Assembly: GCF_054482525.1 (NCBI RefSeq)
Contig: NZ_CM137006.1
DNA: 64,000 nt
Direction: 5' to 3' (one strand)
Positions 62,384 through 64,000 of the stretch are shown in pieces. Numbering within the stretch: position 1 is the first letter of the stretch; each line of letters starts with the position of its first letter. Below the pieces are notes generated by a model that was not told where the DNA came from, searched no databases, and saw only the letters and a list, made by a program, of their open reading frames with translations. Made by a program: the position numbers and the translations under genes.

Positions 62384-62650
62384 ATGATGAGCTTTCAGAA
62401 GATCTATAGCCCAACGCAATTAGCGAATGCAATGAAACTGGTTCGTCAGCAAAATGGCTGGACGCAGAGCGAGCTGGCGAAAAAAATCGGCATTAAGCAG
62501 GCGACAATTTCCAATTTCGAAAACAACCCTGACAATACCACGCTGATGACATTTTTTAAGATTTTACAGTCGCTTGAACTCTCAATGACGCTATGCGACA
62601 CGAAAAATGCCTCGCCAGAATCAACAGAACAGCAAGATCTGGAGTGGTAA
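62384..62650 (+). CDS. hipB: antitoxin/transcriptional repressor HipB (Xre-type HTH)
   Basis: 88 aa from MMSFQKIYSPTQLANAMKLVRQQNGWTQSELAKKIG; stop overlaps hipA ATG by 1 nt. Confidence 0.92.
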   Translation: MMSFQKIYSPTQLANAMKLVRQQNGWTQSELAKKIGIKQATISNFENNPDNTTLMTFFKILQSLELSMTLCDTKNASPESTEQQDLEW

Positions 62651-62976
62651 TGCCTAAACTTGTCACTTGGATGAACAACCAGCGGGTAGGCGAGTTAACG
62701 AAGTTAGCCAATGGCGCGCACACCTTTAAGTATGCACCGGAGTGGTTAGCCAACCGTTATGCCAGACCGTTATCACTTTCGCTGCCATTGCAGAGGGGGA
62801 ATATCACCTCTGATGCCGTATTTAACTTCTTCGATAACCTGTTACCCGATAGCCCGATTGTACGTGACCGGATCGTTAAACGTTATCATGCTAAACGTTG
62901 TCCTCAATCAGATAGAGCATTTTATCGTATTGTACAGTCAGATTTTTTGATACCCGGCGAGGCTCTCGCCAGGTAA
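62650..62976 (+). pseudogene. hipA: hipA 5' fragment: first ~82 codons of HipA toxin kinase, then unrelated read-through to a stop
   Basis: translation matches HipA N-terminus up to ...RIVKRYHAK then diverges (RCPQSDRAFYRIVQSDFLIPGEALAR*); a full hipA would run to about 63970. Confidence 0.8.
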
Positions 62977-63590
62977 ATTCTGCATCAAGGTCATCGTCTA
63001 ATGCCAGCGGCCGGTACGCGTTAAAATCATGCAAGGGTTCTTTGGCAAAGCGCCGGTTATAATCCGCCATGTATTCTTCTGCAAATGCATTGGCCGCTTC
63101 TATTGTACAGATCCCCTTAAGCCTGAGCTCCTTAACGAGTCGGTCCTGAAGTGTCAAATGAGCACGTTCAACGCGGCCTTTTGCCTGGCTGGTTTCAGCA
63201 CACAAAGGAGTAATATTAAGGCAGCGCATGGCCCTGGCAAACTGGGTATCGCCGAGACCGGTGGTGGCGTGCTTATTATTGACTCTGAATACGCTGGCTT
63301 TATCGCTGTAGAGGATCATCGGTCTACCGTATTCAGTGGTGGTCGCAGCCATCAATTTGTATCAGCTCGCCAGTACAAGGACGCCGGTAACGAGGCTGAT
63401 GAATTTTCGGTGCGCGTTGTCTGCGGGGGATCCAGAGTCCCGCGTTTATCATGAGACGTCGGATGGTTTCCTTTCCAAGGACCAGACCGTGAACTTCCTC
63501 CAGCTTTTCCCGCGCCAGCGTGGGGCCAAAATCACGGTAGTGCTCCCGGATTATACTGAGTGCCTCCAATGAGCCACAAATAGAACATTA
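62894..63590 (-). mobile_element. degenerate integrase-core (rve/DDE) transposase remnant; N-terminus truncated, internal frameshift/deletion
   Basis: two minus-strand ORFs in different frames (63333-63569 ending GELIQIDGCDHH; 62891-63355 containing PMILYSDKASVF ... QAKGRVERAHLTLQDRL); D-D spacing far too short; stop codon directly upstream of the N-terminal piece; no terminal inverted repeats found; IS family not assigned. Confidence 0.7.
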
Positions 63591-63645
63591 GCATTGAGCC
63601 TCTATAATTTTGGTGCGCATAATGTGCTACACGTTATGTTGAAAA

Positions 63646-63679
63646 GGCCGCTGCGAAAATAGAACCCCGCAGCGGCCTC
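63646..63679. terminator. 11-bp perfect inverted repeat (aggccgctgcg/cgcagcggcct) between transposase remnant and the low-GC gene
   Basis: seen directly; weak U-tracts on both sides, about 32 nt downstream of the minus-strand ORF stop. Confidence 0.4.
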
Positions 63680-63711
63680 TTTAGCATAACGTCATTGTGC
63701 GAACCAATTAT

Positions 63712-64000
63712 TTATTTTTTTGATTTTTGAGTTGCCTCAATTTCTTTTTTTAAACCATGAAGGTTTTTATGACCGGTTCCCTTTGGTTGTAACTGTCCCC
63801 TTTGTAACTTACTGATTCTATTTCCTCTTTCTGATATTACTATTTCATCATTCAGGGATTTTTCAATCAATGCATACAACGCATTGAATACTTTGATGTT
63901 TTCTGATTCCCTCAACTCTTCGAGGATTTTACTTAGTTGTAGAAAGTCATTAATTAAACTAACGCCATTTTTAGGATCGTAAAACTCCTCATGTCGTTTT
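63712..64000 (-). CDS. 3' part of a low-GC gene of unknown function (open to window edge)
   Basis: minus-strand frame open from the window end to stop at 63712 (...KRHEEFYDPKNGVSLINDFLQLSKILEELRESENIKVFNALYALIEKSLNDEIVISERGNRISKLQRGQLQPKGTGHKNLHGLKKEIEATQKSKK*); AT-rich unlike flanking core genes; no family recognised. Confidence 0.4.
   Translation of the reverse strand, partial: KRHEEFYDPKNGVSLINDFLQLSKILEELRESENIKVFNALYALIEKSLNDEIVISERGNRISKLQRGQLQPKGTGHKNLHGLKKEIEATQKSKK

Follow-up and report, generated by a model that had tools for sequence, protein, structure and literature searches.

A decayed hipBA locus beside dif in Escherichia coli, probably formed by a deletion that ended within a dead transposase gene

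The Escherichia coli toxin-antitoxin locus hipBA occurs in decayed form in the 64,000-nucleotide stretch of DNA analyzed here (contig NZ_CM137006.1 of assembly GCF_054482525.1), which we refer to as the window. An intact hipB is followed by only the first 82 of the 440 codons of hipA, and the truncated gene directly adjoins the remains of a transposase gene. A first-pass annotation of the same DNA described this arrangement as hipA truncated by the transposase. Judged from comparisons with related genomes, hipA is instead truncated by a deletion that happened to end within a transposase gene that was already dead. We consider it highly probable that the module was made stepwise, through a dif-targeted insertion sequence (IS), decay of that IS, a 3,205-bp deletion, and a prophage at dif. 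What is seen here is ordinary decay of a toxin-antitoxin locus, already present in public annotation as pseudogenes. Each piece of its context (dif, an IS whose passenger gene can be swapped, and an Xer-type prophage) is of a published kind, and these pieces are more instructive than the truncation.

Results

The antitoxin side of the locus is complete, as the first-pass annotation had stated. hipB (62384-62650, plus strand) encodes 88 amino acids plus a stop codon, and its product matches the HipB equivalog model NF007271 over positions 1-88 of 88 with 182 bits (cutoff, 79), the mark of a full-length Xre-type HTH antitoxin. Identity to K-12 HipB is 97%, and the accession of the product, WP_001366357.1, is common to two of the comparison sequences, L001 and L002, the latter of which has an intact hipA. 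Upstream of hipB, four exact TATCC-N8-GGATA sites lie within 62249-62362 (operator 1, 62249-62266; operator 2, 62277-62294; operator 3, 62317-62334; operator 4, 62345-62362), for which a motif count gives a chance expectation of 0.03; the half-sites are identical to those of MG1655. The whole of 62200-62895, comprising the operators, hipB, and the start of hipA, has a 100% identical counterpart in a strain whose hipA is intact; this argues that the deletion was recent. A scan for promoter and terminator consensus sequences was uninformative for the hipBA promoter, with counts equal to shuffle expectation, and no −35 or −10 element was assigned. HipB binds four operators and represses its own promoter, probably more loosely when HipA is not there as co-repressor, and Lon degrades it. 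The same would be expected at this locus, where HipB is presumably still produced and repressing its own promoter.

The hipA ATG at 62650 overlaps the hipB stop codon. The remnant (62650-62895, plus strand) comprises codons 1-82 of 440, retaining the N-terminal domain in part and lacking the kinase core. Its DNA is 100% identical to nt 1-246 of an intact hipA and the match ends exactly at 62895|62896; the protein aligns to residues 1-82 of HipA in the PDB (E = 1.8e-51), with the alignment ending at residue 82-84. The earlier claim that homology stops after about 82 codons is borne out, as is the claim that a HipA kinase domain is missing. The N-terminal domain model TIGR03071, matched over positions 2-80 of 101, was the only HipA model matched, alignment recovered hipA nt 1-246 and no full-length hipA, and a complete HipA kinase core (~440 aa, with the catalytic C-terminal domain) is absent at the locus, where there are residues 1-82 only. 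Past the break, the hipA frame (ORF 62593-62976) reads through 26 unrelated codons and a stop codon (62896-62976, plus strand) that are antisense to the transposase. The resulting ORF, HipA′, has 108 codons (82 from HipA and 26 unrelated) and is translationally coupled to hipB. The locus is unable to make HipA kinase or to act as a toxin-antitoxin pair, and the 108-residue HipA′ product is probably unstable and inert.

A two-frame transposase remnant spans 62896-63606 on the minus strand. The family was assigned with the NCBIfam ISNCY model (NF033594) and by direct alignment to an intact 466-aa transposase, WP_000996655.1, carried by plasmid pECO-cbb3 (L007:2266-3666), which served as the reference. 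The fragment of an ISNCY/IS1202-family transposase at 62897-63334 (minus strand) corresponds to residues 201-346 of 466 and matches NF033594 with an E value of 2.8e-60; the fragment at 63336-63566 (minus strand, in the other frame), aligned by blastn and tblastn with L007:2266-3666, corresponds to residues 79-155, with an E value of 7.3e-27. As pieces of a longer protein, neither reaches the 250-bit cutoff set for the whole protein. Both fragments are 97% identical to the intact protein (tblastn), and they are homologous to a transposase family, as first proposed. A remnant of the IS 5′ leader with the left inverted repeat follows at 63565-63606 (minus strand), as aligned with the IS ends of L006 and L007; the repeat itself (IRL) remains at 63590-63606, its terminal TGT changed to TAT.

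Missing from the transposase are residues 1-78 (HTH region), 156-200, and 347-466 (the C-terminal 120), along with most of the 5′ leader. A 134-bp internal deletion between 63333 and 63334 took residues 156-200, the region of a weak rve match, and shifts the frame; a 307-bp deletion took residues 1-78 and the rest of the leader. The first-pass annotation had described a decayed minus-strand transposase in two frames without its N terminus, and that much stands; the losses of residues 156-200 and of the C-terminal 120 residues had gone unnoted. Its proposal of an rve integrase core fared poorly against Pfam, where the fragment was not significant (rve_3, E = 0.34) and the intact transposase weak (E = 0.0087), so that the DDE assignment rests on NCBIfam ISNCY, IS481, IS21, and IS3 matches. 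With transposase residues missing, the frame shifted, and the right end absent, the IS in the window is by its sequence unable to transpose.

The junction at 62895|62896 joins hipA nt 246 to transposase codon 346. It falls inside the transposase ORF (residue 346/347 of 466) rather than at either end of the IS, and has no inverted repeat or target duplication. In ESBLEC_MG32 (L003) and strain 7/2 (L009), which have the ancestral layout, hipB and hipA are followed by a minus-strand SIR2-family gene (451 aa) and then by an ISNCY pseudogene that has its C terminus. Window positions 62242-62895 align with L003 143-795, and 62896-63717 with L003 4001-4821; the window equals the L003 layout minus a single 3,205-bp block, L003 796-4000. 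This lost block holds hipA nt 247-1323, the IS end nearer to hipA, the SIR2 gene, and transposase residues 347-466. Since the window is the ancestral layout minus 3,205 bp, we take the event to be a deletion and not an insertion or a replacement, contrary to the earlier view that the hipA 3′ portion had been replaced by foreign DNA. A comparison of the junction sequences for microhomology found none; the deletion flanks share no bases, which points to an illegitimate deletion. Neither a dif-like sequence nor a repeat was found at the junction.

The 134-bp and 307-bp internal IS deletions are common to the window, L001, L003, L004, and L009. Because genomes with and without the hipA deletion share both, the IS had died before hipA was deleted. 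The passenger SIR2 protein of the chromosomal copies matches the candidate defence family PDC-S25 (E = 2e-82). Plasmid copies carry the same transposase with a STM4504/CBY_0614-family gene in place of SIR2.

Compared across E. coli, the junction described in the first-pass annotation is found in identical form (140 bp) in three of 5,426 complete genomes, PCN033, SCU-102, and 19KM1776, in which PGAP calls both halves pseudogenes. Two of the three are 100% identical to the window over a 1,426-bp stretch across the junction. The origins of the junction-carrying genomes differ: human (USA), dog, and, for PCN033, a record that names no host. The ancestral SIR2-IS layout occurs in 258 of the 5,426. 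No genome retrieved combines the window's exact hipBA allele with an undeleted SIR2-IS; among genomes of the ancestral layout, the nearest shows 98.9% identity across hipB and the 5′ end of hipA. The ancestor is thus one that we infer, and recombination could have shifted the allele between lineages.

The IS lies beside dif, the site of chromosome dimer resolution; in MG1655, the end of hipA is 76 bp short of dif (GGTGCGCATAATGTATATTATGTTAAAT; L011:3400-3427). An exact dif stands at the homologous place in L001, L004, L009, and L011. In the ancestral layout, the IS begins 77 bp downstream of the hipA stop codon on its IRR side, and its IRL side is 5 bp from the dif XerC arm. The hipA-side end (IRR) falls within the segment deleted from the window. 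At the other end, the IS terminates at 63606 and is followed by the 5-bp spacer ATTTT (63607-63611) and then by the XerC-binding arm of dif (GGTGCGCATAA; 63612-63622, plus strand), with the rest of canonical dif absent; the geometry is the same in L003 and L006. The spacer is a decayed copy of an ATGTT target-site duplication. ATGTT is present on both sides of the IS in L006 (a plasmid, where the IS is beside a dif-like site), GACTT on both sides in L007, and L003 has ATGTT at the hipA-side IS end and ATTTT at the dif side, as in the window. The window copy has an altered left terminus and a deleted right end; in relatives, the termini are TGT...ACA with a 5-bp duplication. Chromosomal and plasmid copies alike show the IS ends, the 5-bp duplications, and adjacency to a XerC arm, in agreement with published work on such elements. 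Targeting of dif-like sites and not of coding sequence has been described for ISKpn21-like IS1202-family elements of the ISAba32/ISAjo2 subgroup, which includes passenger-carrying ISKpn21-type elements in Enterobacteriaceae (PMC10132070; bioRxiv 10.1101/2022.12.17.520857).

In the three genomes with the identical junction, canonical dif follows the IS (L001:5413-5440). The window diverges at 63626, within the dif central region, and no canonical dif was found in its 64 kb at up to 3 mismatches. In its place, 63612-63706 can form a forked hairpin in which two inverted dif-like arms enclose a GC stem, and which has the look of the left junction of a CTXphi-type prophage; the DNA single-strand fold is −33.3 kcal/mol (z = −8.4), with a 6-nt bulge at the central region. 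The C-terminal 95 codons of a hypothetical protein of 110 aa (63712-64000, minus strand; P0001, 99% identity) then run off the window. This ORF had no match in PADLOC or NCBIfam, the segment 63700-64000 had no match by E. coli megablast or distant blastn, and a tblastn search against plasmids returned a single remote Methylobacter match only; the ORF was identified solely via a large protein collection. In a 9,025-bp contig (L014), the gene for the 110-aa protein stands at the end of an inovirus prophage with gpII, G5P, Zot, and secretin genes. That contig has GGTGCGCATAATGT at each of its two ends and matches window positions 63610-64000 at 97.7% identity. Furthermore, a 99.65%-identical prophage occupies this position in ESBLEC_MG32, its far end marked by canonical dif (L012). 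CTXphi-type elements are filamentous phages integrated at dif by XerCD, and the anatomy suggests that such an Xer-integrated filamentous prophage may occupy dif in the window strain.

Among the 5,426 complete E. coli genomes, 5,384 have some match to hipA and 4,849 have at least 80% coverage in one place, so that hipA is damaged in roughly one in ten (~10%). Breakpoints are distinct in L004, L005, L009, L010, and O157:H7, and the lesions represent at least six independent events. One is a second fusion, found in 11 genomes, in which the partner is again this dead transposase, joined at a different point to hipA nt 105. Others join hipA nt 326 to 954 in frame (231 aa; strain 7/2 group), nt 383 to 835 in frame (290 aa; UPEC 536), and nt 246 to 1222 (AVS0465), and O157:H7 has lost hipB and hipA nt 1 to ~254, with the end of the deletion near nt 254-257. 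AVS0465 and the window allele have the same left breakpoint, hipA nt 245/246, and different right ends. Descent of both from one event was rejected, given that the two hipA 5′ parts share only 97.6% identity, the genes upstream are different, and the junctions are not interconvertible in one step. This shared left endpoint is not predicted by a purely random break model. More broadly, large surveys have found orphan antitoxins to be abundant in E. coli (PMC10790755).

Alternative explanations

The transposase fragment directly adjoins the hipA break, which is what would be seen had the IS or its transposase inserted into hipA and split it, with the downstream half lost later. We give this scarcely any credence. 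The break separates transposase residues 346 and 347 without an inverted repeat or target duplication, the IS ends lie elsewhere (IRL at 63590-63606 and, in L003, L009, and other genomes of the ancestral layout, IRR 77 bp past the hipA stop codon), and the IS subgroup targets dif-like sites, not coding sequence. That the junction is an assembly artefact or chimera is a general possibility in a region rich in repeated mobile DNA, but its chance becomes practically negligible given the identical 140-bp junction in three independently sequenced complete genomes and the 100% identity of two of them over 1,426 bp. A non-random deletion, arising from breakage linked to dif, the terminus, or Xer-FtsK, or from a hotspot at hipA nt 245-258 (~1.2 kb from dif), has these observations on its side: hipA ends 76-77 bp from dif, two unrelated lineages (the window type and AVS0465) share the left breakpoint at nt 245/246 with differing right ends, the O157:H7 deletion ends near nt 254-257, and hipA has at least six independent lesions. 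However, the other breakpoints are scattered (105, 326, 383, 835, 954, and 1222), the junction has no dif-like sequence or repeat, and counter-selection of a toxin gene would alone explain frequent hipA lesions. With about six events, the chance of one coincidence is a few percent, a rough and not a rigorous estimate, and we regard a non-random deletion as unlikely.

It has also to be asked whether a functional HipB with a HipS-like N-terminal HipA fragment was selected as an anti-addiction or regulatory device. The 108-codon ORF is still translationally coupled to hipB, HipA′ has weak similarity to Legionella HipS (7vkb_B; E = 0.0042), and orphan antitoxins, abundant in E. coli, have been proposed to act in trans (PMC10790755). 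Against this, the fragment covers positions 2-80 of 101 only and ends in 26 junk residues, and the window's ORF list contains no HipT-like kinase ORF next to the hipA remnant. The fragment kept in other lineages is 35, 231, or 290 residues long, so that none in particular is conserved, and the allele is rare (3 of 5,426) and identical to intact-hipA alleles, without a selection signal. Such a device is very improbable. A broader proposal would have either a recurrent breakpoint at hipA nt 245-258, through dif-tied erosion that spares hipB, or HipB with HipA(1-82) acting in anti-addiction against incoming HipA-type toxins; we find it distinctly improbable. If it were true, terminus-associated breakage would systematically erode the hipA toxin and spare hipB.

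Discussion

We favor stepwise decay of the hipBA module. A ~3.2-kb IS1202-family (ISNCY) element with a SIR2 passenger would have entered 77 bp past the end of hipA, with its transposase-proximal end 5 bp from the dif XerC arm. The IS would then have died through the 134-bp deletion in its catalytic core, the 307-bp deletion of its N terminus, and mutation of its terminal repeat. One illegitimate deletion of 3,205 bp would have followed, fusing hipA at nt 246 to an internal point of the dead transposase gene and removing the entire HipA kinase core, the SIR2 gene, and the transposase C terminus. Alignment of the window with its relatives demonstrates these three steps. In the window's strain, a filamentous prophage would finally have taken up dif, although the order of this step relative to the deletion, like the expression of HipB and the reason for keeping hipB, is what we infer. 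What the locus retains is hipB, its four operators, and a 108-codon ORF coupled to hipB in translation.

The persistence of hipB probably reflects a recent deletion and the viability of toxin-first loss only, not a need for an orphan HipB: antitoxin-first loss is lethal, and this constrains the order in which toxin-antitoxin pairs lose their parts. Strains with the allele cannot use chromosomal HipA for persister formation, so K-12 hipA-based models of persistence do not transfer to them. In practical terms this matters little, and no long-standing question is opened. A candidate SIR2 defence gene went with the same deletion. The lesson of the locus is that a gene adjoining a transposase should not be taken as evidence of an insertion event.

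Comparison with known systems

The closest known elements to the IS are those of the IS1202-family ISAba32/ISAjo2 subgroup (tISKpn21 and tISKpn65), with their passenger genes and dif/xrs targets. The intact relative resembles them in its 466-aa transposase with an N-terminal HTH and a weak rve match, its TGT...ACA ends, its 5-bp duplication, its transposase-proximal end 5 bp from the XerC arm, and its one passenger gene. The window copy differs in being dead, without the right end, the passenger, residues 1-78, 156-200, and 347-466, and the terminal TGT. On the other side of the IS, the likeness is to integrative mobile elements exploiting Xer (IMEX) of the CTXphi type: the XerC arm of dif leads into a forked hairpin with inverted dif-like arms and then into inovirus genes, and a related genome has a canonical dif regenerated at the far end. 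The window holds the first ~390 bp of this element, and the mode of integration is read from the anatomy.

With respect to hipBA itself, the HipS protein of HipBST is an N-subdomain module of ~100 aa beside HipT, whereas the window fragment is incomplete (2-80 of 101) and has no adjacent kinase. K-12 hipBA, which encodes the HipB repressor and the HipA Ser/Thr kinase, occupies the same locus between an ECSE_1600-family autotransporter and dif. The two agree in hipB (97%), operator half-sites (identical), hipA codons 1-82 (conserved), and the overlap of the hipB stop with the hipA start, but the window is without 358 of the 440 HipA codons, including the entire kinase core. The literature found on natural hipA truncations consists of general papers on orphan antitoxins, none of which describes the window allele. 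The hipA lesions of UPEC 536, the strain 7/2 group, and O157:H7 are lineage-specific, and PGAP names such products "HipA N-terminal domain-containing protein". In the orphan antitoxins and decayed toxin-antitoxin loci of E. coli (PMC10790755, PMC7232551), the toxin is likewise inactivated and the antitoxin kept with its regulatory DNA; compared with these, the window allele has its own breakpoints, at hipA nt 246 and in the IS interior, and has also lost a SIR2 passenger.

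Passenger genes differ among the copies of the IS1202-family element that we compared, which share the same transposase (L003:1950-4711 in ESBLEC_MG32, a genome with the undeleted layout, and the plasmid-borne copies L006:1330-4160 and, in pECO-cbb3, L007:2150-4960). On chromosomes the passenger is a SIR2 gene that PADLOC assigns to PDC-S25 (E value, 2e-82), and on IncF plasmids it is an STM4504/CBY_0614 gene with a weak match to PDC-S32. A conserved 72-nt hairpin lies beside the right inverted repeat, and every passenger gene terminates directly at it. The combination of varied passengers with this common end point suggests that the element exchanges a cargo of candidate defence genes. 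A hairpin element of this kind, 72 to 77 nt long with a dif-like arm, occurs within the IS beside its right end, and a second copy, 91 to 93% identical to the first, is found at the prophage-dif junction (window 63635-63711; L003:2000-2075 and 4745-4821; L007:4843-4913), an element that the IS and the filamentous phage have in common.

The chromosomal dif site is located ~76 bp from hipA (L011:3400-3427 in K-12 MG1655; compare L001:5413-5440 in a genome with the identical hipA junction). Within the window, at 63612-63717, the sole dif-related sequences are the XerC arm and a forked hairpin of 95 nt built from dif-like arms in inverted orientation. No canonical dif is present in the whole 64-kb window, and the functional site presumably lies past base 64000, at the distal end of a filamentous prophage. 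The partial minus-strand ORF at 63712-64000 encodes a 110-aa hypothetical protein, with a counterpart at 8591-8923 of L014, a 9,025-bp contig carrying a related inovirus prophage. This accessory gene is terminal in a prophage that is otherwise 99.65% conserved, and a different gene, of 363 aa, fills its slot in ESBLEC_MG32. The ORF had zero DNA matches among 5,426 complete E. coli genomes, blastn sensitivity included; homologues of the protein were found in Proteus, Serratia, and Moraxella.

The dead IS remnant also occurs, at 99.7% identity (L008:3968-4712), in CP057078.1 (pRHB38-C24_4), where it directly adjoins an exact chromosomal dif; this record is 50 kb long and carries the label of an IncFIB plasmid. 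The same record contains T6SS/PAAR and papG-like genes, and it may be a chromosomal segment that was either captured by a plasmid or wrongly assigned to one.

Deletions in hipA were also seen in other lineages. In AVS0465, from an unrelated E. coli lineage, nt 246 is joined to nt 1222 (L005:4070), and this left breakpoint matches that of the window (62895) within 1 nt; the O157:H7 deletion has an end near nt 254 to 257. There may be a breakpoint hotspot in hipA at these positions. In-frame internal deletions leave ORFs of 231 aa in the strain 7/2 group (L009:1561-2256) and 290 aa in UPEC 536 (L010:2325-3197). The annotation treats both as ordinary proteins, under the name “HipA N-terminal domain-containing protein”, and not as pseudogenes.

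Upstream of hipB, the window carries an intact ECSE_1600-family autotransporter ORF of 1,806 aa (56753-62173, plus strand), the equivalent of which is frameshifted in K-12 MG1655, O157:H7 (Z1768), and WP4-W18-ESBL-09. Between the last two operators, position 62339 (column 206 of A1, the cross-strain alignment of this region) is G in the window and in the three other wild strains examined and T in K-12, giving a spacer of CTGATAAT in the former and CTTATAAT in K-12. This variant, for which K-12 is the exception, lies in a possible -10 region.
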